DNA from: a bacterium
Lineage (GTDB): Bacteria; Babelota; Babeliae; Babelales; GCA-2401785
Assembly: GCA_023249975.1 (NCBI GenBank)
Contig: JAHFBP010000001.1
Location: 69,870 to 133,869, forward strand
Length of the DNA: 64,000 nt
Direction of reading: 5' to 3'
Part shown: positions 1,966-64,000 of the stretch, piece by piece
How the letters are laid out: each line of letters opens with the position of its first letter
How positions within the stretch are numbered: position 1 is the first letter of the stretch
Made by a program: the position numbers and the translations under genes
Notes under the pieces: model-generated
The model's input: the letters and a program-made list of their open reading frames with translations, nothing else
Database searches by the model: none
Told to the model about the DNA's origin: nothing

Positions 1966-2322
1966 TTACGCGCAGCTTGAATTAGATGAACATTTTCCAG
2001 TAGCACGAGCTGACACATCACAATATGCTGCGTCACTAATCGTGCCCAAAAGTTCTTCTTCGCGAAGGATTAAAAAATCTTCTCCGTCAAATTTGATCTC
2101 AGTTCCTGAGTATTTGCCGAACAAAACTTTGTCACCCACATTAACGTTGATTTTGCGAATAGATCCGTCAGCCAAAAGCTTACCCTCGCCCGTTGCCACA
2201 ACGACGCCTGATTGGGTTTTTTCTTGTGCTGAATTGGGAATAAAGATACCGCCAGATGAAATGTCTTGATTTTCGAGTCTTTTAACAAGAACTCTGTCGT
2301 ACAATGGTTTGACGTGTGCCAC
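1966..2322 (-). CDS. groES: Co-chaperonin GroES, with an unusual ~20-aa C-terminal extension containing 3 Cys
   Basis: N-terminal 95 aa match GroES (KPLYDRVLVKR...GGIFIP...GDKVLFGKYSGTEIK). The tail DAAYCDVSARATGKCSSNSSCA extends beyond the normal GroES end. Lies directly upstream of groEL on the same strand. Confidence 0.9.
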   Translation of the reverse strand: MAHVKPLYDRVLVKRLENQDISSGGIFIPNSAQEKTQSGVVVATGEGKLLADGSIRKINVNVGDKVLFGKYSGTEIKFDGEDFLILREEELLGTISDAAYCDVSARATGKCSSNSSCA

Positions 2323-9385: not shown

Positions 9386-9539
9386 GATATACTGGTATTA
9401 TAACCCAATTTAATAAAGGGCACACCTTGACGCTAAAAGTTATTTAACCCTAAAACCGCATTCCCTGAGTGTTTTGCGAAATTATTATGAGCAAAATATA
9501 TCGAAGGGTTGGTTGGTATAAAAAAATTAAGAGGATCTC

Positions 9540-9959
9540 ATGAAATACCTTGGAATTGACTGGGGCGACAAATGGGTCGGTATGGCTATTTCAGATGCCA
9601 TTGGCATGACCTGCCGCCCCTACAAAACAGTTGCAACACCACAATCATTCAATGCCATTATTGAAATTGTGGCATTAGAAAAAATAACTACAATTGTCGC
9701 CGGAATTCCAATAACTATGGGTGGGACGGTGAGCGATCAAACACGCAGAGCGCAACAACAGACGGCTATGCTCAAACAAAAGCTTGCTGATGCGGGGCAT
9801 ATAATTGAAATCATTGAATGGGATGAGCGATTGAGCAGTTCACATGCTCAAACTATTGCCCAACAAAAGGGTGAAAAGAAATCGGACATCATCCACGCTC
9901 GAGCAGCAGCGTTTATTCTTCAAAACTACCTCGACCATCAAGCATTTGATCGTGCTTGA
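9540..9959 (+). CDS. ruvX: Putative pre-16S rRNA nuclease / Holliday junction resolvase-like YqgF
   Basis: 139 aa. N-terminal LGIDWGDKWVGMAISD is the YqgF/RuvX signature. Confidence 0.85.
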   Translation: MKYLGIDWGDKWVGMAISDAIGMTCRPYKTVATPQSFNAIIEIVALEKITTIVAGIPITMGGTVSDQTRRAQQQTAMLKQKLADAGHIIEIIEWDERLSSSHAQTIAQQKGEKKSDIIHARAAAFILQNYLDHQAFDRA

Positions 9960-12604: not shown

Positions 12605-15600
12605 TTACGATGCATTCTTAAGCAAAGTAGCAAGGTGAGCCAAATCATCGGCGCTCATGCCACTGGTATCGCCTGAAGCTTCGGCAGCATTAGGATCAAC
12701 GGCAACAGCATTAGGATCAGCAACTGGGGCAGCTGCAACTGAAGTCGGCTCTTTCCATCCTTCTTTGAGTGCCTGTTGATATGGTGGAGCCACAAAAATA
12801 TTACGGTAATTAATAGGGGTATTCCAACTACTCAGACCCACATATTGCATACGACCAGGCGGATAAGGATCAGTCCATTCAAGAACCTTGTTAGTTCCCA
12901 AATCACCCTTACCCAAAGCAATCGTGCCATTATCCAAACTAATCCAATACTTTTGATATTCAATGGGCGTAATCATCGCATCAGGATGCTCTTCAGAAGT
13001 AAACTGCGCAACCGGGAAATCAAGACTTTGGACCCTTATGGCTGTTTTAGTATTGTCCCAACCACCAATAACTATCTCATAAATTTCATTTGATGAATTT
13101 CTTGTTTTGAATGGCGTTTGCCCAAAGCAAATGAAAATATCATTAATTGCTTTAGCTTCAAAAACGATTGACCCTTTTCCTGTTTCTTTAAGCTTATCGG
13201 TCAACCACACATATTCAGCATAATAAGGTCGCAATTCAACGCCAGCTCGTGCATTGTCTGCCAGCAAGGCGCGCGCCAATCCATTAATCCAGCTATACCA
13301 AACATCCTTGAGTTTTGCTTCATCAGGTTTATTCATATCAATCAAATATGCATTGTTTTGTGCTGAAATCAGCAAGTTTAAAAGGTCATTGTAAGGAGCA
13401 CGGGCTCCAGGCTGAGTTGGATCTGGATATAATTCTTTTTGAGCTTCATTTAAGCTCGCCAATGCATCGAATAGACTTTTTTTGACATATGGATTTTGAA
13501 CAACATATGGATGATTAATAAGATAAACAATCTGTTGATATAAGCTTACCAAACGCTCAAACTTGTCAGGAGTTGACGGTTTCCACTTGCTACCAAGCTC
13601 AATATTTGCATCAACTTTTGCTTTATTTTCAACAGCTTCTGGAGGGATGCTCGCTTCACCCAAATGCGCACCCATATATTTATCGGTATACACATAAGCC
13701 TGTGCATCACGGAAATTTTGCAATTTAGCCGACTGTGCAGCTGCACCAGCTCCCAGAGCCGCTCCTGCAGCACTAAACCCAAGACTTCCTATTGTTGCTA
13801 TCAAACCACCAATCTGAGTCTGTCCGCTCACTGACTGCCCAGAAGCATCCAAGGATTCTGATGTTGCTTTCATAATGTCTGCTGACTTTTGAAGTTCTAT
13901 TTTGCTTGGATTTTCAGGCTCAGTAACCCAATCCAACTGAGGAAACCCATCTGATTTAACTGTGATCATAAAATAATATTTTGCACGCTGTTGTGGCGTT
14001 GCCCCAGGATAATACGTTTTATTATTAACAATATCTTTAAATTTAACGGATGAACCCTCTTGTTCAATGTGATATTCATACGGCAAAATGATATACACTG
14101 CGCCTTTATACGCAAATTGAGCAAGTTCACGTTTATATGACTCAGAAACTGTGGCAATTTCAGGGCGAACAGGTGAGGCAACTTTAATATTCTTAAAGGA
14201 TGCTGACGTTCCACCAGTACCGCCAAACCCTATATATTTTAAAGTACTGATTGGCGAAATATCTTGAAGAAGAGTAAATGCACCTTCTCCCAACTTTCCC
14301 TCACCAATAATCAATTCACCAAAATAAAAGCTTGCCCAATAACTGCGCACACCACTGGGGTCAAGTGCAGCTTTTGGATATGATTTTGCCTTTAAAAATG
14401 CCATGTCCTTGTATCCGCCGCTGACATCTGAAGACATACGCTGAATTCTGAGGCCTTCATTTTCGCCATCCCCAAAAATAATAAGGTAACGATCACTCTT
14501 GCCATCTTTTTCAGCTGCTATAGCAAAAACCGCCTGCTTATTTCCTTTAACATCAAATGAAACTGCTCCGCGCCCTGGAACACGAAACGGCTTGTCATAC
14601 CAGGTCAAATTATCCAAAGATCCTGATGTATTCACTTCGGTCGTTCCTGCATCAAAAACTCGTTTTGCCGCCGTCATAACGACGGGCTTGCGCATTTGAA
14701 CTTCTGCATAAGTAACCGGTGTTTTATCGGTAGAAAAACCAACACGCCTGACCTGAGCTGGCGGGTTAGGATCACGCCACGACATAATGGTTCCTACGCC
14801 TGGCTGACTTCCCGCTCCAACTAAAATAAGTCCGTCATTAATACTCACCCAATAAGGAATAAAAACTCCTGGCGTAGTTGAAGCGGCTGGAGTCTCGTCA
14901 CGTGTAATTTCAAAAACAACTTCATCAACAGGAAGACCTTCCTCAAATCGTCTTTTAATAATTTGAGACTTGGTATTGTCATATGCACCTAGTCGAACTT
15001 TCCACACAAAGTCTATACCAACATCAAAACCAAAAACGACCTGAATGTCGCCCCTATCTTCCGCCTTTGCTCGAAATAAAATGGTAACCTTGCCAGGAGT
15101 ATCAAGAGATGTCCCCAACCAGGCAGCACCCTTGCTCAACAATGAATTAACGGTCAACATAAAACTTGAATCGAAGTTATCAATCTGATCTTTGGCAAAA
15201 CCCGACAATCGTGGTTTTTTTGCAGCACTCAACGTATCTGCAAAGTCTTGCGTTGCCTTGGGCGCAATTCCTCCACCCATCCCGAGTTTTACAATTTCGA
15301 TATTAACAAGCTCATTTGCCCCATCCTCCGCAGGTGAACCATAAGGCGCTCCTGTCCAGGCAACATCATCTTCGGGCATTGCCGATTCTATGGCATCAAA
15401 GACCCACCATAATCGACTTTTTTGATCGGATGTGAGAGCTTGCGCCACAGGTTCGGCAGGCGCAGTGGTCGCTGCTGTTTTTTGAGCAGCTTCTGCCTGA
15501 GCCGTGGCCTTTGCCTGTATAGCTTCAATCTGTACCGTTGTTGCATCTTTTTGCACAACTGCCTGAGCGCGAACAAGAGCCTCAGCCCCCATAACCTCAC

Positions 15601-16405
15601 TACTTGCTGAATATAATTCACACTTTGCGTCTACACTCACAAAAGTAACATTGCGCCCCCAAATCCACTGTCCACCACCTTCAACCAGTACTTGAAAGTT
15701 GTCTCCTCCATCACCAAGGCCATCTTTTCCATTTAAAGCTACGGCCAAGTTGGATGGTATTGAAGACGCGCGCCTTTGTTTGTCCATGTGGAGATTGCCA
15801 TTGTGTGCAGGATCTGCGCATTGCAAACGAATAATATCGCCATGCATAACAGGAGTCCCTGGGATGCAGTTCCATGGATCATCTTTGCGATGCGGGCCTT
15901 TGACTACCCAATACTCAGGAAGCTCTGCTGCAGCTGCTACCCCAGAAGAAGACTGAAGATTATATTCATAATGATCCCTTCTTACCTTTTCTTTGGTTGT
16001 TCTCATTTCTTGAATACCACTAGAATTATGAATGGATGTGAAATAGTGCTTATAGGTAACATCCTCTTCGGCTTCCTTAGATACAAGCTTTTTAGTAACT
16101 TTCAAATCAACGGCAGAAACTGTGCCCGCTGGGGCACGCAAGCCTTTACTCGATCCAAGGTTACAAATCTTGAGATAGTCGCCATAATTTATCGGTTTTT
16201 TGCGACTCAACAAACCATTCTTAAGAACTGATAGTTGTTCATCTGCAGGAACATCTTTTGCTTCATAATTCAACACCTTTCCCACGTCCTTATTCCCTGC
16301 GATGTCTTTACCTTCTGGGGTGAGTGCGGAGCCTGAAAAAATATTCAAAAAAAGAATGTATCCCCACATTTTACTCTGGTTTTTATTAATCATCATTTTT
16401 GTCAT
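12605..16405 (-). CDS. Giant secreted protein (1266 aa) with three FAMeT-like (Methyltransf_FA-like) beta-sandwich repeats. Paralog of the 17312-21835 protein.
   Basis: N-terminal signal peptide. Three modules match the motif pattern ...IGGWDNTKTAIR...YWISLDNGTIALGKG...VLEWTDPYPP...YVGLSSW. Pro/Ala-rich C-terminal tail. Extensive collinear similarity to the 1507-aa neighbour. Confidence 0.85.
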   Translation of the reverse strand: MTKMMINKNQSKMWGYILFLNIFSGSALTPEGKDIAGNKDVGKVLNYEAKDVPADEQLSVLKNGLLSRKKPINYGDYLKICNLGSSKGLRAPAGTVSAVDLKVTKKLVSKEAEEDVTYKHYFTSIHNSSGIQEMRTTKEKVRRDHYEYNLQSSSGVAAAAELPEYWVVKGPHRKDDPWNCIPGTPVMHGDIIRLQCADPAHNGNLHMDKQRRASSIPSNLAVALNGKDGLGDGGDNFQVLVEGGGQWIWGRNVTFVSVDAKCELYSASSEVMGAEALVRAQAVVQKDATTVQIEAIQAKATAQAEAAQKTAATTAPAEPVAQALTSDQKSRLWWVFDAIESAMPEDDVAWTGAPYGSPAEDGANELVNIEIVKLGMGGGIAPKATQDFADTLSAAKKPRLSGFAKDQIDNFDSSFMLTVNSLLSKGAAWLGTSLDTPGKVTILFRAKAEDRGDIQVVFGFDVGIDFVWKVRLGAYDNTKSQIIKRRFEEGLPVDEVVFEITRDETPAASTTPGVFIPYWVSINDGLILVGAGSQPGVGTIMSWRDPNPPAQVRRVGFSTDKTPVTYAEVQMRKPVVMTAAKRVFDAGTTEVNTSGSLDNLTWYDKPFRVPGRGAVSFDVKGNKQAVFAIAAEKDGKSDRYLIIFGDGENEGLRIQRMSSDVSGGYKDMAFLKAKSYPKAALDPSGVRSYWASFYFGELIIGEGKLGEGAFTLLQDISPISTLKYIGFGGTGGTSASFKNIKVASPVRPEIATVSESYKRELAQFAYKGAVYIILPYEYHIEQEGSSVKFKDIVNNKTYYPGATPQQRAKYYFMITVKSDGFPQLDWVTEPENPSKIELQKSADIMKATSESLDASGQSVSGQTQIGGLIATIGSLGFSAAGAALGAGAAAQSAKLQNFRDAQAYVYTDKYMGAHLGEASIPPEAVENKAKVDANIELGSKWKPSTPDKFERLVSLYQQIVYLINHPYVVQNPYVKKSLFDALASLNEAQKELYPDPTQPGARAPYNDLLNLLISAQNNAYLIDMNKPDEAKLKDVWYSWINGLARALLADNARAGVELRPYYAEYVWLTDKLKETGKGSIVFEAKAINDIFICFGQTPFKTRNSSNEIYEIVIGGWDNTKTAIRVQSLDFPVAQFTSEEHPDAMITPIEYQKYWISLDNGTIALGKGDLGTNKVLEWTDPYPPGRMQYVGLSSWNTPINYRNIFVAPPYQQALKEGWKEPTSVAAAPVADPNAVAVDPNAAEASGDTSGMSADDLAHLATLLKNAS

Positions 16406-17311: not shown

Positions 17312-20300
17312 TCACTTTGGCATACCGTCTGATCCTTGCTCAGTAGCAGCAGCACCAGTAGCAGCTGGTGGTGGTGCTGGTGCTGTGGTTGGAGCTTGAG
17401 CTGACACACCTGTAGGAACAGCCGCTGGTGTTGGAGACTGTACGGTACTTGATTTCTTGATCACAGCAGGATCTTTTTTCTTGATAGCATCTGTCGCAAT
17501 TTTCTTAAGAGCCGCAGATACTGCTCCTGATTTGATTGCTTCCCGAGCTTTTGCAGTCGCTACTTTTTCTTGTTCATAAGCATCTTTAGACTCTTTTTTT
17601 GCATCTTTAAAAGCAGTCTTGAGAGCTGACTTCAGGCCGCCTTTTTCTTTAAAGAAAGCAATCTCCCCCTTAAGCATATGCTTATCTTGTTTTGCCAAAA
17701 AGGCTGCTCCTTGTGCATTCATAATACTTTGTCCTGCAGCACCCCCCTTAACCCGCTGTGCCGCACGAACAATTGGAGTAAAGCCAGTTTCAGCAACCTG
17801 TCGGGCAGCTTTTCGCTCAGCCAAAACTGGCGGTGGCCCAAAGGTATAGTCCCATCCCTCCAGTGTGAGTGGGTCATACGACAGTTCATCATATGCAAGC
17901 TCATCAAAATCTGTTTTTTTGGTGCTAAGAATATCTATTTTTTCAGCCTTTGAGTCCTGAGCAAGCTTGTCCGACTTGGTAATGTCCTCAAATGACAGTG
18001 CTAGAGTAGCTGCTTTTTCCTTTTCAAGAGCCGTCGCCGCGGTTTCTATCGCGCTCGGACCTTTTTGTTTTACTTCAACTAAATATGACAAATCAGTTTC
18101 ATTGGTAACGGGAGGTCCCACCTTGATGTTCGCAAATGTTACGGGAATTGCCCACGTACTAAAGCCTAAATATTGAGTTTTTATAGGGTACGGATCAACC
18201 CACTCCAAAACCTTACCCGTTCCCCATGGTCCATGACCAAGCTTGACCACCCCATCGTTAACGCTTACCCAAAATTTTTCAAGTACATTCGGTGTAAGCG
18301 CAGCATTAATATTATCATCGCTCGAAACCGTTGCGACGGAATGACCAAGGCTATAAGTTCTGATAAAGGTCTTTTGATTTGCCATTCCCCCAAATACGCA
18401 CTCGTAAAAGTCAACGTCCGTATTGCGCACATCCTGAGGTTGTGGAATAAGCCCCACAAAAATATCACTCAATCCACTCGCTTCAAAATACACAGATCCA
18501 CGTCCAGGTTGAGGCAGTTGAATATTTGAAAGCCAAATATATTCACCAAACAATGGCCGAACCGTCAAATCTTTACCTTTTTCAAATAACTCTTGGATCA
18601 ATTGCTGTATCCAGCCAGTCCAGAGGGTTTTTCGCTTGAGATCCATTTCATCACGACGATCCAATAGGTACGCATTTTCACGCGCTTCTACCAAAAGGGC
18701 CACTATCTGCTTTTTAAACATTTCTGGAGCAGCCCAGCGCGTTTCGGGTATTCCATACTGATCATATTTAAGGGGGGTATTTGCTGCATTTCGAGCTTCC
18801 ATATTTTTAACATGCTGGATACCTTGATCATAAACCTGCTTGATCATTCCAAAAAGTTTATTTTTCAGAGCCACTTTGTCTTGTGCTTGCCCAAGAATTA
18901 CCGGATGCGTAATAAGCATAATCGCTTGCTGAAGGATTGAAATATAATATTCGTAGTCACGCGCAATCCCCGGATTGAATTGTTCGAGCTTGTGCATTTT
19001 GTCATCAAACAAAGTCTTGTTGTCTTGAGCCTCCTGAGGAATAACGCCAGCCTTGCCACGCACAGATGTCTGTATTTTTTCCGTAAACACATAATTGTCA
19101 TGTGGTCGGTAACCAAAAGTATTGTTTGCCTCAAGAGTTGCAACTCCCACACTTCCCGCCACAAATGCCGAAGCTGATGCTATAGACGCTGCTGCATTAA
19201 CCGCAGAAAGTGCCATTCCAACAGGATCCCCATCCTGATACGGAACATTTCCTATTTCAGCAGCAGCACTGAGGGTCGTTCCAATAATGGTTCTTGCACC
19301 AAAAACAGCTAAGTTTTTCAAGAACACTTGTGCATTTTTCGGTTGACGCGACCAATCTCCAATCTCAGGAGTTCCATCTGGCTTGATAATCAAACGAAAG
19401 AAGTACGAGGCTGCTTGCTGTGGAGTTTTTCCTGGATACCATGTCTCTTGAGCTATTGCATCATAACACTCAATTTGCTGACCTTTTTGATCAAAATGAT
19501 ATGAAAAAGGAAATGCAACATTGATGACCCCTGCAAAATTATCACGCTGTTTAAATCCAGCAGCTACTTGCATACCCAATTGAACAGGCGACCCAATGCT
19601 CACATTTTGGATTTCACCCGTACTGGCATCGTTCAAGAAAAAACCTATTTTTTTCATTGAAGCCAACTGATCAATCCGGAGTATCGCCATTATCTTCTCA
19701 CCAGGCTCGCCATGCCCAATCACCATATAATCATAAAAAAGGCTCACCCAAAACTTTTTCCACTGATCTGGATCAAGCGCTTCCTGAATAAAAGCTACTG
19801 GAGTGGCTAGTACAGTTTCTTCGTACTCACCCTTTTCATTCATTTTCCATAGCGAAATGCCATCAAGATTATTGGCCCCGAAGGAAACTTGTATAACGGA
19901 TGCCTTATCCGCAGAAATCACGCCCTGAGAATCATCGCTTTTCAAGTTCAATACAACTTGCCCCTGACCTCGTGCCTCAAAGGTGACGCACCCTCGGCCA
20001 TCTTCACGCAAAGGCTTGTCGAGCCACAGCGGAGCATCCATTCCAACAGAAAGAACTCCCGGCTTTTCTATTGCTGTATAAACTTTGGATTGTTTTGTTG
20101 CTTTGATTGGGGGGCCAAGTTGAACTTCAACTATTTCAACATTTGTCTTAAAGTTTGAAAATCCAATGCGATCAACTTCGGCTGGTGGTGCAGGGTCTGC
20201 CCATGCAATAATAATATTTTCTCCAGGAATAGCCCCTGCGCCTGCAACAATCAATCCATTGTCAACACTTACCCAATAAGGCATATGCATGCCTGGCGGT

Positions 20301-21835
20301 ATTGCGGCAAGTGCGTTTTGTTCAACGGGAACCTCCGCTACAATGCAATCCCCCTTCATGATTACAGCCTTGGTATTATTAAACCCCCCAATAATTACTT
20401 TCCACACATATTGAGCAGGCGAAAGCTTGGTCGAACCAAATACTATTTGAAGATTTGCCGCATCTTCAACTTGTGCCCTAAACATAATAGAAGTACTCAT
20501 TGGTGTTGCCAAAGGAGTCTGAAGCCAGGCTGCCCCAAGATTCATAAGGCGACTCAGTTTTAAGCTTGTTTGATAATTGAAATTTTCAATGCGCTGTTGC
20601 GCAAAACCACTAATCACTGGTCGATCACGAACATATACTCGAAATGCTCCCGTTGGAGCATCAAATGGCAACATATTTTGAAGCGTATCTCGAAATGAAC
20701 CCTTGGCGCTCACCGTTAGTGCCGCAAGCCCTGCACTTGCTGCACCAAGCCCTCCAACCGCTAACGCAACCAGCCCGATGCTCTTTGCACTTGCAATCCC
20801 AGCTCCTCTATCGGCCGCACTTCGAGAAGCCTCTTTAGTGTCCCCATCGGCACTAATAGTTGCCATTTTTACACTTTGAGCATTGCGAGTAATCATTTTT
20901 TCTCTGAATTTTTGCTGAATTTTTTTTGCAGCTTCATCTTTTGTTACAGATGTAGCATTTTTTGCTTTTTCTATTGTTTCAGCCTTTTTTTCAGCAGCAA
21001 ACTTATCCTTCTTTTTTTCAGCAGCAGCCTTATCCTTGTTGTCCTGAACCTGCTTATCATAACCCTCCTTAATATGCTTATCTGCAAAACGCTGCAATAC
21101 ACTACCAGAAGTCTGTACCTTTACAGCTGCTTGCCGAGCCTCAAGCTCTACTTGAGTTCTTTTACTTTCATCAATTTGTTTCTTAATTTTTTTTGCTTCA
21201 TCTGAGTCTTGATCTTTATGCTCAAGCAACTTATTACTTAAATCGTTCTGTTTTTGCCTATGCTTATCAATACCTTTTTCATTAGCTCGATAATCAAGAG
21301 ACCGCGAAACTATTGCATCTTTTTCGGCAAATTGTTTTTTGAGCTTTTCATCATTTGGATTGTCTTCAAGTTGCTTTTTAAGCTCCCTGCGATTTTGTAT
21401 TTCTTTATCTAATTCATTGGGATTTTCTATCAATCCCTTACGCTCTTGTCCCACAATTTTTTTTACTGCCTTATTGGCTTGAGAGTTAAGGGCATACATA
21501 AGAGCCGCAGACCCCATCATCCCAAGGCTAGCCAAAAAGGTTTGTGCTTTTGCTGGCTCTGGATCTAATTGGATATTATCAGAATTTCCGCCATTGGCCC
21601 CAATTCGATAATCTTTGTTGGAAAAAGAAACTACTATAGGAAAATCAGAATTATTTTCTATGCGTTCGATAATCCCCCAGCCATGATTAGCTTTGGCAAA
21701 AAAATCCTGATTAACTTGATCACTTGCCTCTTGCATGTCCTGATCGGTAAGCGGAAAGCACTCATGAAGTGTATTGCCACAAAGAATAATTGTTAAAAAT
21801 ATGGCAATTTTTTTTCGATAGCCATTGTCATACAT
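17312..21835 (-). CDS. Giant secreted protein (1507 aa): K/E-rich coiled-coil N-region followed by three FAMeT-like repeats. Paralog of 12605-16405.
   Basis: Signal peptide MYDNGYRKKIAIFLTIILCGN. Long KEKKDK charged region. Modules with VWKVIIGGFNNTKAVI, PYWVSVDNGLIVAGAG and VLEWVDPYP. Pro/Ala-rich C-terminus. Confidence 0.85.
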   Translation of the reverse strand: MYDNGYRKKIAIFLTIILCGNTLHECFPLTDQDMQEASDQVNQDFFAKANHGWGIIERIENNSDFPIVVSFSNKDYRIGANGGNSDNIQLDPEPAKAQTFLASLGMMGSAALMYALNSQANKAVKKIVGQERKGLIENPNELDKEIQNRRELKKQLEDNPNDEKLKKQFAEKDAIVSRSLDYRANEKGIDKHRQKQNDLSNKLLEHKDQDSDEAKKIKKQIDESKRTQVELEARQAAVKVQTSGSVLQRFADKHIKEGYDKQVQDNKDKAAAEKKKDKFAAEKKAETIEKAKNATSVTKDEAAKKIQQKFREKMITRNAQSVKMATISADGDTKEASRSAADRGAGIASAKSIGLVALAVGGLGAASAGLAALTVSAKGSFRDTLQNMLPFDAPTGAFRVYVRDRPVISGFAQQRIENFNYQTSLKLSRLMNLGAAWLQTPLATPMSTSIMFRAQVEDAANLQIVFGSTKLSPAQYVWKVIIGGFNNTKAVIMKGDCIVAEVPVEQNALAAIPPGMHMPYWVSVDNGLIVAGAGAIPGENIIIAWADPAPPAEVDRIGFSNFKTNVEIVEVQLGPPIKATKQSKVYTAIEKPGVLSVGMDAPLWLDKPLREDGRGCVTFEARGQGQVVLNLKSDDSQGVISADKASVIQVSFGANNLDGISLWKMNEKGEYEETVLATPVAFIQEALDPDQWKKFWVSLFYDYMVIGHGEPGEKIMAILRIDQLASMKKIGFFLNDASTGEIQNVSIGSPVQLGMQVAAGFKQRDNFAGVINVAFPFSYHFDQKGQQIECYDAIAQETWYPGKTPQQAASYFFRLIIKPDGTPEIGDWSRQPKNAQVFLKNLAVFGARTIIGTTLSAAAEIGNVPYQDGDPVGMALSAVNAAASIASASAFVAGSVGVATLEANNTFGYRPHDNYVFTEKIQTSVRGKAGVIPQEAQDNKTLFDDKMHKLEQFNPGIARDYEYYISILQQAIMLITHPVILGQAQDKVALKNKLFGMIKQVYDQGIQHVKNMEARNAANTPLKYDQYGIPETRWAAPEMFKKQIVALLVEARENAYLLDRRDEMDLKRKTLWTGWIQQLIQELFEKGKDLTVRPLFGEYIWLSNIQLPQPGRGSVYFEASGLSDIFVGLIPQPQDVRNTDVDFYECVFGGMANQKTFIRTYSLGHSVATVSSDDNINAALTPNVLEKFWVSVNDGVVKLGHGPWGTGKVLEWVDPYPIKTQYLGFSTWAIPVTFANIKVGPPVTNETDLSYLVEVKQKGPSAIETAATALEKEKAATLALSFEDITKSDKLAQDSKAEKIDILSTKKTDFDELAYDELSYDPLTLEGWDYTFGPPPVLAERKAARQVAETGFTPIVRAAQRVKGGAAGQSIMNAQGAAFLAKQDKHMLKGEIAFFKEKGGLKSALKTAFKDAKKESKDAYEQEKVATAKAREAIKSGAVSAALKKIATDAIKKKDPAVIKKSSTVQSPTPAAVPTGVSAQAPTTAPAPPPAATGAAATEQGSDGMPK

Positions 21836-43869: not shown

Positions 43870-43903
43870 AAAAGCAAGGGGAGAATTATTGCGGGGGAAT
43901 CTT

Positions 43904-45466
43904 ATGAAAGTTCATTTACACAGACAATTATTTATTATTTGTGCGGTAATCAGCACCATCTCTTGTGTCATTTTTCCAAAAGACGATACCCTCAAAGCTC
44001 AAGTTGGCATTATCTCAGACCAAGCTGATCGTCGGGCTGGAAGAAAGCATCCGCACACCAATGCGGCCCCAATTGTTCAGCAAGACCCTGTTGAACAAAA
44101 GCAAATTGTTGCCCAAAAAGACTGGACTATTTTTTTGTATATTCAGGCTCGCAACAACCTTGCTCCATTTGCCATCAGAAACCTTAAAGAAATTACCGAT
44201 GTTGGGCCTGGCGAAAAAGTTAACGTGGTCGTTCAATGGGAACAACCGCACCAGAAGGGCGTTTGGCGTTATATCATAGAAAAAGACCGCATTGTATTGC
44301 TCGAGAGCGATGAGACTGATCATAATATTGACCCGGCCAAAAGATTGGTTGATTTTATAGCCTGGGGCGCTAAGCGCTATCCGTCCAAAAAAACTGCCGT
44401 CATTTTGTGGAATCATGGGATTGGAGCTCTTGATCCAACGTGGGGCAACCCAATGCGGTTCCTTGTATTTGGTGATGGCAAACACAACCCACGCCTTGAT
44501 ATTGAAGGCGTTACCTACACAAGCTCTAATATAGAGCAAGAAGAGTCCGAAGAGGGTAACTCCTATCAAACACAGCAATCCCGCTCAGCGAAAGCTGCAA
44601 AGGACAGATCTGACCTGTCTGAAAACGAGCACAGGGGATTGCTCTTTGATGAGCTCTACAAAATTTATATGACCAATAAAGACCTGGGGCGTGCCTTGCG
44701 CGGCATTTATGCTGTTTTAGGAAAAAAAATAGACGTTCTTGGAATGGATACCTGTTTCTCGCAAATGATGGAGCCTGCCTATCTAGCCAAAGACTTTGCG
44801 CATTATTATGTAGCATCTCAGGACATCGAACTGGCAAGAGGTTGGCCCTATGACGAAATTATGAAAGCACTCCAAAACGACCTGTCTCCACGCCAACTGG
44901 CCGAAACCATCGTACAAAAATACGAACAACTTTATCGCGGAAAAACACATCTTTTTACGCTTTCAGCAATTGATTTGAGTAAAATTATGCCCCTCAAACA
45001 AAATATTGACTCAGTTGCACAACACCTCATTGCAGCCATGAGTGCTGAGCGTGGTCCTGTTACATCACTCATCAGACGGTCACGCAAGGAAACGCTTGAA
45101 TTTTCAACACCTCTTTATGTTGACCTCCATTCATTCTATCTCGAACTTTCTAATAATATTTCTGCAGCATTTCAAAACCGGATGGGCCAGGGTCTTTTCC
45201 CTTCCTTGGCTCATCGCTATCCAAATCGCATCATAAGTAGCATCAGCAGAACGCCACTTTCAGAAAATCTTCTCAGGGAAGTTCAAAGCGGCATCAATTT
45301 GATCAATCAAGCCGTATTTGCAAAAACATCCAGCCAACGATTGGGTCGATCTCAAGGAATTTCGATCTATTTCCCTCAATATGGACTCGACGATTCATAT
45401 ATCAACAATGAATTTGCTCAACAATCGACATGGACCCAACTCATTAATGTTATGCTTCAATCCTAA
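43904..45466 (+). CDS. Secreted clostripain-like cysteine peptidase (MEROPS C11 family)
   Basis: Signal peptide MKVHLHRQLFIICAVISTISC. Catalytic dyad motifs ILWNHGIGA (His-Gly) and LGMDTCFSQMME (Cys). Paralog of 62181-63458. Confidence 0.7.
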   Translation: MKVHLHRQLFIICAVISTISCVIFPKDDTLKAQVGIISDQADRRAGRKHPHTNAAPIVQQDPVEQKQIVAQKDWTIFLYIQARNNLAPFAIRNLKEITDVGPGEKVNVVVQWEQPHQKGVWRYIIEKDRIVLLESDETDHNIDPAKRLVDFIAWGAKRYPSKKTAVILWNHGIGALDPTWGNPMRFLVFGDGKHNPRLDIEGVTYTSSNIEQEESEEGNSYQTQQSRSAKAAKDRSDLSENEHRGLLFDELYKIYMTNKDLGRALRGIYAVLGKKIDVLGMDTCFSQMMEPAYLAKDFAHYYVASQDIELARGWPYDEIMKALQNDLSPRQLAETIVQKYEQLYRGKTHLFTLSAIDLSKIMPLKQNIDSVAQHLIAAMSAERGPVTSLIRRSRKETLEFSTPLYVDLHSFYLELSNNISAAFQNRMGQGLFPSLAHRYPNRIISSISRTPLSENLLREVQSGINLINQAVFAKTSSQRLGRSQGISIYFPQYGLDDSYINNEFAQQSTWTQLINVMLQS

Positions 45467-48072: not shown

Positions 48073-48190
48073 TAAAATTTCATCTAATGGGGGCGTTGAA
48101 TATGATCGCCCCTTTTGACAATGCCGTCATTCATCTGGTAGCCTAATAGAGTAGCTTTTCTTGGGCTACATGATCTTTGATAGAAAATCT

Positions 48191-48640
48191 GGGGGTGTAC
48201 CGGCTTTCGACGTGTCGTTGTGTATCCTTGGTGCGTGTCGAGTTTGATTGTGGCTCGTAAAAAAACGATCAGCACAATAAGTGCAAACACAACAATGGCC
48301 CTTGTGGCCTGTGCTTCTGCAGCTCTTGTAGCTGCAGCTACAGCTTTTGTTGCTCCTGTTGCCGCTGCTTTTGCAGTTGCCTTCAGCAACGACACTGTAG
48401 TAGCTTAACCGCTGAACACCTTGTAAGCAGGTGTGTCTATTCACCCAGCTTACTCGTATTATAATAATAGAACTTGCCAGGTAGATTTCCTCTTTGGGTA
48501 ACCTGGTTTGTATCAACCAAAAGGGCAGAGTGGGTTTTGGGGCTTCTTGCATTCCTTCTCTGAACCTCAAGAAGACACACACGTAGTACCTCTGATATAA
48601 AGCGGGGCGGACATGGGTTCGACTCCCATCACCTCCACCA
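48191..48640 (+). ncRNA. ssrA: tmRNA (ssrA), about 450 nt, with a long Ala/Val-rich tag reading frame
   Basis: 5' end GGGGGTGTACCGGCTTTCGACG. 3' end is a T-arm (ATGGGTTCGACTCCCAT) + CACCTCC + A + CCA pairing with the 5' GGGGGTG, including a G3·U wobble (alanine identity). Candidate resume codon GCA at 48283 is preceded by AAAAAACGATCAGCACAATAAGU, as in E. coli. Tag frame runs to TAA at 48406-48408. Confidence 0.8.
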
Positions 48641-48980
48641 TTCTTCGCCAAGGCTTCGAATGGCACAGCTAGCCCTAATGTGTAGCCAGATTTTTTAATA
48701 GGACCTAATTTTCTTATAATTTTTTCTATGTTTTATTCAACAAGCTTCATGTTGCAATACCCCATTTTTTTAAAATAAACGATGTTTTATAAACACTTTT
48801 GTGTTAATTATTTTTCATGCTAAGGTAGCAGTTAGCCCAAAAGATGATGAAGGCGAAAGTGTCCATCTTGAAAGCGATTACCTGAGTCATTGGTACGTGC
48901 TCTGCGTTCCTAGGTAATACCACTGCGATAACTACATAATAGAGATGTTCATATCAACCATTTTAAATTGCGAGATAATC

Positions 48981-59798: not shown

Positions 59799-60965
59799 CT
59801 ACTCATCGAAGTGTGTATCTGTGTCCTCAAGTTGTTCATGATTTGTGGTAACAGTTTCATTTTCAATAACATCTTCAGTTGCATCTTCTACATCATCTGC
59901 ACTTTGAGCAAACAATTTATTTTTTTTGTCGTGTTGGCCATTTTGATCTATATCAGCACCTTGGAGCTGAATAATAATCCCTGCCATTTGTGAAGCAAGG
60001 GCTATGTTTTGGCCACCTTTTCCAATAGCGAAAGATCTTTGATCGTCAGCAACATGCACTGTTGCTCGTCGTTCATCTTCAGAGATTTCAACATCGTCTA
60101 CTTCAGCTGGTTTCAAACTCGACTTAACAAGTTCTTTTATGTTATCTGTCCAGGCAATGAGATCAATTTTCTCTTGGTCAAGGCTTCGTAGTATTGGTTT
60201 AATACGTGCACCACCAATCCCAACACATGTTCCAACAGGATCGATCTCTTTACTGTTACTTTGAAGGGCGATTTTGGTTTTGTATCCAGCAATACGAACT
60301 ACCTTTTTGACTTCAACGATACCTTCAAAGACTTCAGGTATCTCTGTTTCGATAAGTTTTTTAACGAAATCAGCAGAGGCTCGATCAAAAATCAATTGGT
60401 AGCCACCTTGTGAGTCAGCTAACACTTCCTTGAGCAATGCTCGAGTAGAATAACCTACACGTAGTGTTTCTCCTGGGATAGTGCAAGAGAAGGGCATAAA
60501 GCCAATAACTTCTCCCAAGCTGATTGCAAAACCAGAGCGTTCTTTTTTGTGAATAGTTCCAGTAACAATCGTACCTTGGCGATCCTTGAACTCTTCGTAG
60601 ACTGCGTCTTGCTCTAGTTTTCGGATATGACGAGCAATAATTTGACGTGCAGCAAGAATCTCAATACGTCCAATTTTTTCCTCAAAGGGAACATCCAAGA
60701 TATCGTCAAGCTGAGCTTTTAAATTAAATGCTTGGGCTTTTCTCAACGAGATTTGATGATCTTTGTCTTCAGCGGATGATACCACAGTTTTTTTAACAAA
60801 AACCTCAATAGCTAGAGTTTTTTTGTTAAAAACGATGCTGAATTCAAATTCAGGAAATTTTTTCTCATAAGCAGCACGAACTCCATCGCAAACAACTTCA
60901 ATAACCTGTTCACGGTTAAGTCCACGCTCTTCAACGAGAGATTCTATGACGTCGGCAAGATTCAC
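59799..60965 (-). CDS. nusA: Transcription termination/antitermination factor NusA
   Basis: 388 aa. N-terminal domain, S1 and tandem KH domains (GxxG: IGKGGQNI). No C-terminal acidic repeats. Confidence 0.93.
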   Translation of the reverse strand: MNLADVIESLVEERGLNREQVIEVVCDGVRAAYEKKFPEFEFSIVFNKKTLAIEVFVKKTVVSSAEDKDHQISLRKAQAFNLKAQLDDILDVPFEEKIGRIEILAARQIIARHIRKLEQDAVYEEFKDRQGTIVTGTIHKKERSGFAISLGEVIGFMPFSCTIPGETLRVGYSTRALLKEVLADSQGGYQLIFDRASADFVKKLIETEIPEVFEGIVEVKKVVRIAGYKTKIALQSNSKEIDPVGTCVGIGGARIKPILRSLDQEKIDLIAWTDNIKELVKSSLKPAEVDDVEISEDERRATVHVADDQRSFAIGKGGQNIALASQMAGIIIQLQGADIDQNGQHDKKNKLFAQSADDVEDATEDVIENETVTTNHEQLEDTDTHFDE

Positions 60966-61300
60966 TACGGTAAGCCCTTTGATTGGGTGAATATTAAAAC
61001 AACCTGGCTTGAATAATTAGGCAACCTGGTCGAAGAACACTGAATAGCAAGGCTTGCTGAAAACCATGCTAGATATTTCTTGAATATACCTGAACGTGAA
61101 AAAAAAGAAAGGTCCATTTTGTTCAAAACCTTACAATCTTGAAATCCTAGGGTCTTTGGTTTGAAAAAGGGTTTAGCTTATTATTATTATTTCATAAATA
61201 CTTTTTAAGTATGATAATGATAGATGAAAGTACTTTCTGTTCATAACTCAACAAAAATAACGCCAAACAAGGCTCCAGGAGCCAGTTACAAAGAGACTTC

Positions 61301-61506
61301 AAATTGTTCATAACCTGTTCATAACTTGTTCACAACATGTTCACAACTTTTTTTTCATCTCCTAAAGATGCCAGTAGGAGCCACTTTTGAAACATGCCAC
61401 TTTCAATAATATTATCTAGAGCCATGTTTGAGGGGGTTCAAAATAAGTTATGAACAATTTGAAATGAGTTATGAACAGGTTATGAACAGGTTATGAACAA
61501 TTTGAG
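61301..61506. repeat. Iteron-like array. Four direct TGTTCA(T/C)AAC decamers at 11-bp phase (61301-61348), mirrored by an inverted array (61447-61506), separated by ~98 bp.
   Basis: Left arm CAAATTGTTCATAACCTGTTCATAACTTGTTCACAACATGTTCACAAC. The right arm is its near-perfect reverse complement (first 26 nt identical). Confidence 0.8.
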
Positions 61507-61517
61507 CCCTGATAGAA

Positions 61518-62099
61518 TCATGCTTTTGAAGAGGTGACTAAAAACTTGATTATTTTGTGCAAATCCCACGACAGAATCGACTCTTTGGAGGGATTTCTGA
61601 GTACATAGGCAGGGTGGTAAGTTGGTATAATTACAAAGCCTTCCCACTGATGTACATTTCCCCGCTCTTTGGCTATACGTGACTTGGCTCCCAGAAGGGC
61701 TTTTGTTGCGGTTGAACCTAGAGTACAGATAACTTTTGGGTTGATTATTTTAATCTCATCAAGTAAATGGGCGTTTTTACAAATATTGAGTTCTTTGACC
61801 GTAGGGGCTCTGTTTTCGTGAGGACGACATTTGACCACATTGGTGATATAAACTTCGTCCCGAGAAAGCCCTGATTCTTCAAGAAGCTTGGTCAAAAGTT
61901 TGCCTGATCGGCCTACAAATGGAACGCCTTGTTCATCTTCGTCATGGCCAGGAGCTTCGCCAATGAACATAATTTGGGCATCAGGATTACCTACCCCAAA
62001 CACGATGTGATTATCCCGTGCAATTTTAAAAAGGCATTTGTGGGATGCTGCATAGGTGGCATTGAGTTTGGCAAGCTGTGAAAGCTTATCTTCATGCAT
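61518..62099 (-). CDS. Uracil-DNA glycosylase, family 4 (UdgA-type)
   Basis: [23 protein letters not shown] motif and C-terminal HPAYVLRNP are typical of family-4 UDG. Confidence 0.85.
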
Positions 62100-62180
62100 A
62101 GGTGTGCCTTTTTTATGTGTGAATCATGAGTTGCTTAACATTAGGCAACAGGTATTTATATCAGTTTAGCCGGAAGATTG

Positions 62181-63458
62181 TTATGCGAACAGCCCTGTTG
62201 GTCCATGCGGCACATTTTTCAAGAATTTGGGCCAATAACAATTTTTGGCAAAGACTGTTTTGGCATACGATGCATGTGCGGCATTGAGGGGATAGTAAAT
62301 GGAAAGTCCGCCAATATTTTCATGATCAGAGCCAAATGAGCGTGCAATGATCGCATTATTAATAAGCGAGAGTCCATCTTTCACGAGAGCTTGTAGTTTA
62401 GGTACGAGAGGATTTCTAGCCAATTCTGGTTGGGCCCCAAAATTTTCACTGATACTGATGTACCAGCGAGAGAGATCAACAAAGTTTCGATCATGAAAAA
62501 CTGGCGTCATGGCACGATTTCTTCTGATAAACATAAGTAACTTGCGAACAGCTTCCCCCTTAGGTCCCTTATACAAGTCTTCCAAGCAGTGAGCCACATT
62601 CGAGATATTATCTTCAATTTTGCTGACAGTATTGGTTCGAGTTGCCACGAGGGTAAAGCCAGGAAATGCCGCATAACGTTCGCGATATTCCTTTTCGTAA
62701 GCTTTGACAATAGCCTTGGAAAGCTCTTCTGGGGTTGGGGTATTGTTTTTAAATATTTTTAAGATTTCTGTATAGCCCCATCCATTGCCAGGCTCCACTT
62801 CTGGAGACGCAATTACAATTTCTGCAGTGTGCTGAATTTGTGATAATATTTCAGCACCATTCATGAGGCAGGCATCAAATCCAACAATGGCAAACTTTTT
62901 ACCATTCATGTGTTTTAGCACGGCGTCTTCCAGGGTTGACTTAAGGTCTTGATTGTCGAGATACACATTGTATTCATCATTAAACGCAATGCCGCGTGAT
63001 AAAAAGTGACCTGATATAAACTTAGACCTGTCCAGGCATCCGCTGCCATGGTTACCGATAATAACGACATAATTATCCGCAGGAAATGATGGAATTCCCC
63101 AGGCGAGAAAATCAGCAAAACTTTCACGAGTACCACTTGCATTTTTGGCTGTTTTTTCCAATGAAGCACACTCAATAATTTGACCAGGTTTGATGTAAAG
63201 TCGTTTGATGTGTGAAGTGTTTTTGATATCAACTTGTGCGACAAGGTTAACATTTTTGTCAGAGATTAAGCTCATCAATTCCTCAATGTCTTCTTCAAGG
63301 TATTGCGCCAGAGAGTTATTCCCAGCTTCGTAAAATAGCAAAGTATAAGCCTTTTTAGGCTGCTTTGGCTGAATGACTCTGTTTTCATCCTGAGCTGTTT
63401 TTGAAAAAAGATTTACACTGCATACTACGAGAAAAAATATTGATAATAATTTTTTCAT
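62181..63458 (-). CDS. Secreted clostripain-like cysteine peptidase (MEROPS C11), paralog of 43904-45466
   Basis: Signal peptide MKKLLSIFFLVVCSVNLFS. His motif VVIIGNHGSGC. Cys motif VGFDACLMNGAE (classic FDACLM). Confidence 0.75.
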   Translation of the reverse strand: MKKLLSIFFLVVCSVNLFSKTAQDENRVIQPKQPKKAYTLLFYEAGNNSLAQYLEEDIEELMSLISDKNVNLVAQVDIKNTSHIKRLYIKPGQIIECASLEKTAKNASGTRESFADFLAWGIPSFPADNYVVIIGNHGSGCLDRSKFISGHFLSRGIAFNDEYNVYLDNQDLKSTLEDAVLKHMNGKKFAIVGFDACLMNGAEILSQIQHTAEIVIASPEVEPGNGWGYTEILKIFKNNTPTPEELSKAIVKAYEKEYRERYAAFPGFTLVATRTNTVSKIEDNISNVAHCLEDLYKGPKGEAVRKLLMFIRRNRAMTPVFHDRNFVDLSRWYISISENFGAQPELARNPLVPKLQALVKDGLSLINNAIIARSFGSDHENIGGLSIYYPLNAAHASYAKTVFAKNCYWPKFLKNVPHGPTGLFA

Positions 63459-63524
63459 AATGAACTCAGGGTCAAGGTAGGTTATGTAAGGTATCGCCAG
63501 ATTAAGGATATTTTCCAGACAGTT

Positions 63525-63950
63525 TCAAGATCTTGCATAAGTTATATCACGGACCATAAAGGGTGCTGTTGCAACAAGTGCTGCAGTCAAGGCATAACTG
63601 AGCTGAAAATCAACAAAAAATAAGTGAAACGGATTGTACATCAAAATCGCATAGCAGGTTAAGCCGAGCAGGTGCAAACTTGATTTTTGACGTGCAATGA
63701 GGGCAATACCCAAAAGATTGAGCACAAAGAAAAATAGCGATCGTATGAATGAAATTGATGACCAAGAAAAGATAGTATAGAGCAGGCAGAACAATAACAG
63801 AAAAATGTGCTTGATAATCATTGGAGCTGGAATGAGCTGCAAAAGTGGCTGAATCGTGATAATTAACAATGTGATATGCAATCCCGATCGGGCTAAATAG
63901 TGCGACAATCCCCAGTGCATAAATGTTTCACGCAAGGGGTCGGAAACCAT
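63525..63950 (-). CDS. ComEC/Rec2-like membrane protein fragment (possibly truncated or pseudogene)
   Basis: SHYLARSGLHITLLI resembles the ComEC competence-domain motif HLLAISGLH. Only 141 aa of multi-TM sequence. True N-terminus unclear near the window edge. Confidence 0.3.
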   Translation of the reverse strand: MVSDPLRETFMHWGLSHYLARSGLHITLLIITIQPLLQLIPAPMIIKHIFLLLFCLLYTIFSWSSISFIRSLFFFVLNLLGIALIARQKSSLHLLGLTCYAILMYNPFHLFFVDFQLSYALTAALVATAPFMVRDITYARS

Positions 63951-64000
63951 ATATGTTTTTTTGCCTAAAAAGATGGTACCAAAAAGTCGCTGTGTGGTGC

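Follow-up and report, generated by a model that had tools for sequence, protein, structure and literature searches.

A probable replication origin upstream of nusA in a Babeliales bacterium

What is the function of a short intergenic interval that is packed with phased repeats in two opposed sets? The question is raised by a stretch of 64,000 nucleotides from a Babeliales (Dependentiae/TM6) bacterium (assembly GCA_023249975.1, contig JAHFBP010000001.1, positions 69,870 to 133,869; the whole stretch is here called the window), in which such repeats lie between a UDG-superfamily gene and nusA, at 60966-61517. A preliminary description of the window had read them as iteron-like decamers that bind a dimeric protein. 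Our analyses indicate that the element is very probably the chromosomal replication origin (oriC) of this bacterium. An oriC built from DnaA boxes and a basal unwinding system (BUS) is a known kind of element; here it lies beside nusA, with boxes of a lineage-specific spelling.

DnaA-box arrays and a skew switch beside nusA

The repeats are confined to this locus. The motif TGTTCAYAAC has nine exact matches in the window, all within 61238-61499 (starts at 61238, 61305, 61316, 61327 and 61338 on the + strand, and at 61447, 61468, 61479 and 61490 on the - strand), and none elsewhere in the 64 kb. The expectation from shuffled sequences is 0.48, and none of 100 shuffles reaches nine. Counted as nine-letter boxes, there are seven copies of TTATGAACA, two of TTGTGAACA and one of TTTTGAACA inside 380 bp, and relaxed boxes reach a density of 11 per 500 bp at the locus, compared with at most four anywhere else in the window. 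The boxes form two inverted arrays of four, array A on the UDG side and array B on the nusA side, together with a single box and a weak outlying box (Table 1). In array B, TTATGAACA occupies 61313-61305 and 61324-61316, and TTGTGAACA occupies 61335-61327 and 61346-61338. The outermost box of array A comes within 18 bp of the UDG stop codon.

Much of the preliminary description of these arrays stands. It had reported four TGTTCA(T/C)AAC copies at an exact 11-bp pitch in the left array, a perfect inverted copy of 26 nt (61300-61325 versus 61479-61504), arms about 98 bp apart (we find the arrays to be 98-101 bp apart) and an AT-rich stretch ahead of the arrays, and all of these were recovered. 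Longer arms of 38 nt (61299-61336 versus 61468-61505) are 95% complementary. The right array does consist of four phased reverse-complement copies, but its spacing is not uniform, and the ninth and the weak tenth box (61238-61246 and 61120-61128) had been missed.

Table 1. Features of the nusA-linked element and its flanks, ordered from the UDG side to the nusA side (positions in the window)
Feature	Position	Strand	Remark
UDG-superfamily gene	61518-62099	-	Pfam PF03167, E = 9e-42; other flank of the element, reads toward the origin
Array A (UDG-proximal), four TTATGAACA	61448-61499; starts 61448, 61469, 61480, 61491	+	spacing 21, 11, 11 bp
Inter-array spacer, 101 bp	61347-61447		length kept across lineages, sequence not
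Array B (nusA-proximal), four boxes	61305-61346	-	exact 11-bp pitch; oriented toward the candidate unwinding element
Single proximal box, GAG-TTATGAACA-G	61238-61246	-	putative anchor box of the unwinding module
Spacer of 14-16 nt and DnaA-trio-like run	61207-61237	+	orientation as in the B. subtilis BUS
AT-rich 40-mer, candidate duplex-unwinding element	61179-61218		36/40 A+T; overlaps the distal trios
Weak outlying box TTTTGAACA	61120-61128	-	nusA side of the candidate unwinding element
Rest of the nusA upstream region	60966-61119	-	presumed promoter and leader, from alignment only
nusA	59799-60965	-	constant flank of the origin; infB next (57569-59788)

The same locus in relatives identifies the repeats. 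Scanning genome and metagenome contigs with NusA assigns the window to Candidatus Babeliales (Dependentiae/TM6). A search with the NusA protein returned, besides the exact NusA, more than 100 homologues at 55-65% identity. We compared the nusA loci of 18 other lineages (L003-L006, L008-L010, L012, L013 and L017-L025) and added the same-species contigs L001, L002 and L016; the set holds 25 loci in total. A layout of 4 + 4 + 1 boxes, mostly canonical DnaA boxes, is found upstream of nusA in the 18 other Babeliales lineages. Reading toward nusA, four boxes at an 11-12-bp pitch are followed by a 97-101-bp spacer, four inverted boxes at an 11-bp pitch, a 57-60-bp spacer, one box in a (T)GAGTTATNNACA context, a relatively G+C-rich spacer of 13-16 nt, a TTATTATTATTA run, an AT-rich 40-mer (34-40 of 40 positions A+T) and then about 200 bp to the nusA start. 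For example, L010 has nine perfect boxes (TTATCCACA/TGTGGATAA) and the five visible boxes of L008 are all perfect. L003-L005 carry TGTGGATAA in one array and TTATCAACA in the other, and L006 and L021 carry TTATCAACA throughout. A census of 11 genomes other than the window gives TTATCCACA 44 times, TTATCAACA 30 times and minor variants 15 times.

The window boxes TTATGAACA and TTGTGAACA match these canonical boxes column for column (alignment A2). Array A aligns with the TGTGGATAA x4 array of the relatives, array B with their GTTATC(C/A)ACA x4 array, and the TGAGTTATNNACA context of the single box is invariant. Since the aligned sites in relatives are canonical TTATCCACA or TTATCAACA, the supposed iterons are thus best read as DnaA boxes in which positions 5-6 are GA instead of CC or CA. 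Relative to canonical TTATCCACA, TTATGAACA has two mismatches, one at the free position 5 and the other at position 6. Published work describes position 5 as free in E. coli and M. tuberculosis (TTWTNCACA) and all remaining positions as DnaA contacts (PMC5043019). Boxes beyond the AT-rich element, comparable in placement to the weak outlying box, are also present in L006 and L022.

The element stands at the orthologous site in 19/19 lineages, and the conservation upstream of nusA on which the preliminary description had made its reading depend was found in every relative examined. The lengths of the spacers are conserved as well. The gap between the arrays is 97-101 bp in eight lineages (106-110 bp start-to-start) at a spacer sequence identity of only about 0.5-0.6, and the distance from box B4 of array B to the single box is 66-69 bp in eight lineages (67 bp, start-to-start from the last array B box, in the window). 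Because the lengths are kept while the spacers are only about 50-60% identical, the comparison suggests that geometry is constrained, and not sequence.

Some further observations concern the arrays and their spacers. In L017 (9660-9730; NCBI contig LDIV01000001.1, 806 kb) no more than 2 + 1 boxes are seen, and the junction contains an N (aactNtctat). Assembly may have collapsed its inverted arrays, and mis-assembly of such origins could be systematic in metagenome-assembled genomes (MAGs). In the window, the spacer between array B and the single box contains a G+C-rich palindrome, GGCTCCTGGAGCC (61271-61283), and a direct repeat, AGGAGCCA(G/C)TT, occurs once per spacer, at 61277-61287 and 61376-61386, 99 bp apart. 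L003-L005 have spacer repeats of their own, e.g. CAAAAAGCAC and TTCAAAAGCAT after each array. These spacer repeats could be sites for an accessory origin protein.

The second line of evidence is GC skew, which the preliminary description had suggested computing. Skew was measured over at most 10 kb per side in relatives, and over 2.5 kb on the UDG side of the window. The first 61 kb of the window have a mean skew of -0.097 (2.48-kb windows; standard deviation 0.038, maximum +0.003), the right flank is at +0.082, and cumulative skew is lowest at about 61.0-61.4 kb. The sign also changes at the box cluster, in the direction expected of an origin, in ten relatives (UDG side / nusA side: L003, -0.131 / +0.093; L004, -0.114 / +0.133; L005, -0.116 / +0.110; L006, -0.033 / +0.141; L009, -0.120 / +0.122; L017, -0.150 / +0.157; L018, -0.211 / +0.168; L019, -0.059 / +0.091; L021, -0.069 / +0.147; L022, -0.124 / +0.162). 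The switch therefore coincides with the arrays in the window and in ten relatives, and three of these loci are interior to contigs of 557-806 kb.

Two other explanations of the skew were rejected. The flip is not a coding-strand effect, because the genes on either side of the site run in one direction in the window, L021 and L022; L009, with mostly + strand genes to the left of the origin, is nevertheless at -0.12 there. Nor does the site look like a terminus, as the cumulative curve has its minimum here and the + strand is G-rich to the right.

A candidate unwinding module

If the element is an origin, where would the duplex open? The AT-rich 40-mer begins 20 bp from the proximal box in the window, and 40-mers of similar composition (34-40 of 40) lie at the equivalent offset from nusA in seven of eight relatives. 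Between box and 40-mer lies a run that resembles the DnaA-trios of B. subtilis. The BUS of that species is 3'-AATAGGTGT TTAGGTGT CCGG GATGATAATGAAGATGAT-5' (PMC8287927, supplementary tables), which means 5'-TTATCCACA-3', then on the same strand a 12-nt spacer, then trios whose complement is 3'-GAT-5'; spacers of 13 nt are the most common, they do not exceed 16 nt, and a minimum of three NAN trios is needed (PMC8287927). In relatives we find a box, a 13-nt spacer and four to five 3'-AAT-5' trios, a clear match to these rules. In L003, for example, TTATCCACA is followed by 13 nt and (TTA)5, the complement of which is 3'-AAT-5' x5, much like the Oceanobacillus entry.

The window itself is borderline. 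Its trio strand is the + strand, which reads GAT AGT AAT AGT ATG AA in the 3' to 5' direction from 61223, after a 14-nt spacer. With the frame shifted by two it reads TAG TAA TAG TAT GAA, five consecutive NAN trios after a 16-nt spacer. Where the window differs from its relatives by T-to-C changes, the middle position of the ATT/ATC frame is spared, which would fit a constraint on the trio strand's central adenine.

These parts suggest a mechanism. DnaA monomers bind boxes and then oligomerise through their AAA+ domains. In the window, DnaA domain IV would bind ten 9-bp boxes of the form TT(A/G)TGAACA, and the 11-bp pitch, with 2 bp between boxes and one helical turn per unit, would place successive domain IV contacts on one face of the helix. 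The AAA+ domains would then form a head-to-tail ATP-DnaA oligomer on each array, so that two arrays yield two opposed subcomplexes. Array B and the single box at 61238-61246 are oriented toward the trios and the AT-rich element, and the single box, the 14-16-nt spacer and the NAN trios would together act as a Bacillus-type BUS. A DnaA filament growing from the single box onto the + strand trios (61207-61223) would melt 61179-61223; with the helicase loaded there, forks would leave both ways and produce the GC-skew switch.

How does this compare with known origins? E. coli oriC has four low-affinity sites in each half, spaced 2 bp apart, on which DnaA subcomplexes form in opposition; this is described in PMC6070618 and PMC9198467, which cite Rozgaja et al. 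2011 for the Left and Right DOR (DnaA-oligomerisation regions). According to the same sources, the phase between the halves matters, since a 10-bp deletion is tolerated and deletions of 5 bp and 18 bp are not. The element upstream of nusA shares the two opposed four-site clusters, the 2-bp separation and the adjacent AT-rich unwinding element, and its conserved inter-array length recalls the importance of phase in E. coli. However, the arrayed sites of E. coli are cryptic, of low affinity and flanked by the high-affinity boxes R1, R2 and R4 and an IHF site, whereas the boxes here are near-identical within the origin and consensus in relatives, with no sequence-level distinction between anchor and array or between high and low affinity; nor was an IHF site identified, although no search aimed at one was made. 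The neighbours also differ, gidA and mioC in E. coli and UDG and nusA here.

The B. subtilis BUS (PMC6669920, PMC8287927) has the same series of TTATCCACA, a 12-16-nt spacer, trios of the form 3'-(G/A)A(T/A)-5' and AT-rich DNA; the 13-nt spacer of the relatives equals the modal value, and their AAT x4-5 runs are like that of Oceanobacillus. Distal upstream boxes are present too, as in B. subtilis incC. In contrast to the tandem pair DnaA-box#6/#7 of B. subtilis, there is a single proximal box here, the trio run of the window is interrupted (GAT AGT AAT AGT...) and follows the rule in the shifted frame only, and the origin is linked to nusA instead of flanking dnaA. Within the same phylum, an oriC was predicted for Chromulinavorax destructans (Dependentiae) from GC skew and TTATCCACA, at 651641-652233 (about 590 bp) and away from position 1; that paper gives neither the architecture nor the neighbouring genes (PMC6561590). 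We found no description in the searchable literature of a nusA-linked origin in Dependentiae, of a regular 4 + 4 + 1 scaffold or of a lineage-private replacement of its boxes. These three features, the second of which joins the E. coli and Bacillus designs, are what should be of note to specialists.

Points against an origin, and rival readings

Several observations weigh against the origin reading. No dnaA was found in the window or in the 25 loci (tblastn, E <= 1; the DnaA query was validated by Pfam, with PF00308 at 2e-63 and PF08299 at 1e-31), although linkage to dnaA and dnaN is a common rather than an obligatory feature of oriC, and the origin of Babela massiliensis has been predicted next to dnaA (PMC4378268). 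The window has no canonical box at all, and a lower affinity for a standard DnaA is expected because position 6, here changed from C to A, is a contact in E. coli (PMC5043019). Its trio run follows the permissive (NAN)>=3 rule only at the maximum spacer of 16 nt. The window offers only 2.5 kb on the UDG side of the arrays for the skew, and L006 has its skew minimum displaced by 744 bp, with the opposite sign in its outermost 3.5 kb. Finally, the genes on the UDG side would be transcribed head-on to the departing fork, which is atypical close to an origin.

The last point can be described in further detail. At least 12 kb of genes on the UDG side (UDG, a C11 peptidase, ComEC, YajC, two secretins and PilM) read toward the origin, as seen in 61518-64000 of the window and in the gene tables of a longer same-species contig, L021 and L022, and their order is conserved in several lineages.

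Could the boxes be genuine but serve another purpose? They might be a titration site, like datA or DBC, or a DnaA-controlled operator of nusA and infB, with oriC elsewhere. The boxes are consistently linked to nusA, at a distance of 280-550 bp upstream, DnaA is known as a transcription factor at box clusters (PMC13438810), and the predicted Babela origin beside dnaA (PMC4378268) would suit such a reading. We nevertheless regard it as improbable: GC skew flips exactly here in the window and ten relatives, and the module of box, spacer, trios and AT-rich DNA is conserved, whereas a titration site or operator needs neither module nor skew. A secondary regulatory effect on nusA, alongside origin function, is possible.

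A smaller chance still attaches to the idea, raised in the preliminary description, of iterons or operators bound by a dimeric protein, either a plasmid-type Rep or partition protein or a dedicated autoregulator of nusA and infB. Direct, helically phased repeats in two inverted sets would suit it, and plasmid iteron origins do resemble this locus in having direct, phased initiator-binding repeats beside an AT-rich region. Plasmid Rep iterons are 17-22 bp long. The unit here is 11 bp, a 9-bp DnaA box at an 11-bp pitch, and relatives have the DnaA box TTATCCACA as its core; the locus is flanked by UDG and nusA, with no rep or par gene adjacent; the locus is chromosomal and has a skew switch; and blastn against plasmid and phage collections gave no match. 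What survives of the iteron proposal is a replication-type site, given the skew and the conserved DnaA boxes, but not one of the plasmid Rep/Par type. Cooperative binding on one helical face, which had also been proposed, is likely, but not by a dimer, since the repeats are DnaA boxes and DnaA binds as a monomer. An autoregulatory nusA-infB operator is not needed, and it would leave the skew switch, the trio run and the AT-rich element unexplained.

Equally remote is a structured RNA or DNA, i.e. a hairpin in read-through transcripts from UDG to nusA (a terminator or leader), a cruciform, or a mobile inverted repeat of the miniature inverted-repeat transposable element (MITE) or repetitive extragenic palindromic (REP) kind: the fold of the window is strong (-86 kcal/mol, z = -10.6) and between lineages the two arms change their box spelling in concert, in a way that imitates covariation, yet in L003-L005 and L018 the two arrays differ in spelling and the arms are 75-88% complementary, and the fold of L003 is weak (z = -3.6 versus -10.6), its arms pairing poorly because its two arrays carry different spellings. 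The long hairpin suggested earlier is thus a by-product of two inverted arrays. Rfam (60500-62000, E <= 1) returned only plant miRNA-precursor and snoRNA matches, the former at 24-39 bits against gathering scores of 119-249; such sub-threshold matches are artefacts of any long inverted repeat. A mobile or REP element was discarded, as there is no other copy in the 64 kb and the site is orthologous in 19/19 lineages.

Respelled boxes, neighbouring genes and wider meaning

Why are the boxes of the window spelled differently? C and A are about equally frequent at position 6 in this Babeliales family, and we did not find TTATGAACA described as a DnaA box in the searchable literature. One explanation is concerted change within the arrays. 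The units are near-identical, including their 2-bp spacers, and slippage or gene conversion can homogenise boxes, as the near-identical units, the loss of a unit in L002 and the 26-nt inverted copies indicate. These two processes, acting inside each array and from one array to the other, probably gave the uniform spelling, and DnaA specificity may have reinforced it.

Variation among close relatives is also visible. L002, a co-occurring strain of the same species from another sample, has one 11-bp unit of array A fewer than the window (2069-2110 versus window 61479-61505; three boxes, not four), a natural change in DnaA-box copy number through slippage. In L001 the array flank differs by one A-to-G change.

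Selection may also have acted, by way of a changed DnaA specificity. The single box and the weak outlying box, both outside the arrays, also read GA at positions 5-6, and L022 has a private spelling in all of its boxes; these two facts are what keep the possibility open. A more specific version holds that the DnaA of this lineage prefers G5/A6 and has co-evolved with all ten origin boxes, and that L022, a sister lineage, shifted independently; we consider this conceivable, though on balance doubtful. There are parallels in the species-specific boxes of Helicobacter (TCATTCACN), Thermotoga (AAACCTACCACC) and Mycobacterium (TTGTCCACA) (PMC5043019, PMC6669920), where all origin boxes are likewise respelled lineage-wide and paired with lineage-specific DnaA recognition. 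Unlike those cases, the change here is private to one species-level lineage, in a family that otherwise uses TTATC(C/A)ACA.

The case of L022 can be set out briefly. Its locus (9490-9830) keeps the 4 + 4 + 1 scaffold and the skew flip, and all of its boxes read TT(A/T)TC(A/G)ACC(AC), e.g. GTGGTTGAAAA / TTATCAACCAC. This spelling alters the contact position 9 and distantly recalls the Thermotoga box, ..CTACCACC. The nearest relatives of the two respelled lineages have ordinary boxes: L023, the nearest to L022, uses TTATCAACA, and L024, the nearest to the window, uses TTATCCACA.

The private spelling of the window, TGTTCATAA, also turns up once each in relatives with otherwise canonical boxes. 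In L003 (3130-3138; also in L011) it lies 68 bp outside array A, much as the single box stands 69 bp away on the opposite side, and in L012 (3-11) it is the first unit of array A. These stray copies may be due to chance, or the spelling may lie within the DnaA repertoire of the family.

The genes around the origin have a conserved order too. On one strand, the ancestral order is secretin-PilM-secretin-YajC-ComEC-(C11 peptidase)-UDG-[ori]-nusA-infB-lpxK, and a UDG neighbour is likewise present in L009, L017-L019 and L021-L024. The preliminary description was right that the gene 5' of nusA is not rimP; it is the UDG-family gene. The element does not, however, stand in place of rimP and its leader, as the order UDG-ori-nusA is ancestral in this Babeliales family. 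As for the promoter of nusA, a scan of the window found no convincing one. A weak -35/-10-like pair on the - strand, at 61110-61105 and 61088-61083, was not reported by the scanner. In relatives, an element CTTCACTTTTT(N)GTTTTTA...TA(A/G)ACT is conserved about 90-130 nt upstream of nusA (L003:3600-3640, L010:970-1010, L017:9893-9925, L018:9843-9875 and L024:2705-2740). It fits a sigma-70-like nusA promoter, TTCACT-17-TAAACT, and this TTCACT..TAAACT element is only weakly recognisable in the window (61083-61110, - strand).

Other features of the window deserve a short mention. There is a long tmRNA of 450 nt at 48191-48640 (+; Rfam, 120.8 bits), with an unusual predicted tag peptide, AATAFVAPVAAAFAVAFSNDTVVA. 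A 166-aa open reading frame at 48166-48666 is probably spurious because the tmRNA lies on the opposite strand. Two giant neighbouring paralogues of 1266 and 1507 aa, at 12605-16405 (-) and 17312-21835 (-), both carry C-terminal repeats of Methyltransf_FA (PF12248). This domain is known mostly from eukaryotes, so a role of these proteins in host interaction is possible. The window also has two clostripain-family (Peptidase_C11) genes, at 43889-45466 (+) and 62181-63458 (-); one belongs to the conserved ComEC-C11-UDG-ori block, and a second copy is found in L018 as well.

In summary, fixing an origin for uncultured, intracellular Dependentiae helps to close and orient MAGs and to estimate growth rates from the peak-to-trough ratio of read depth. 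In this Babeliales family the origin is tied to nusA and infB, not to dnaA. Its legible layout supports the two-subcomplex geometry of E. coli and the BUS of Bacillus as parts of one widespread design, and the wholesale respelling in single lineages offers a testable handle on the co-evolution of DnaA with its boxes, or on the concerted evolution of site arrays. If the preference of DnaA has indeed shifted, a fixed 4 + 4 + 1 scaffold with freely respelled boxes would be a natural series of initiator and origin co-evolution, and the locus would present a natural, idealised orisome of two opposed oligomers, an arrangement that cryptic sites conceal in E. coli.

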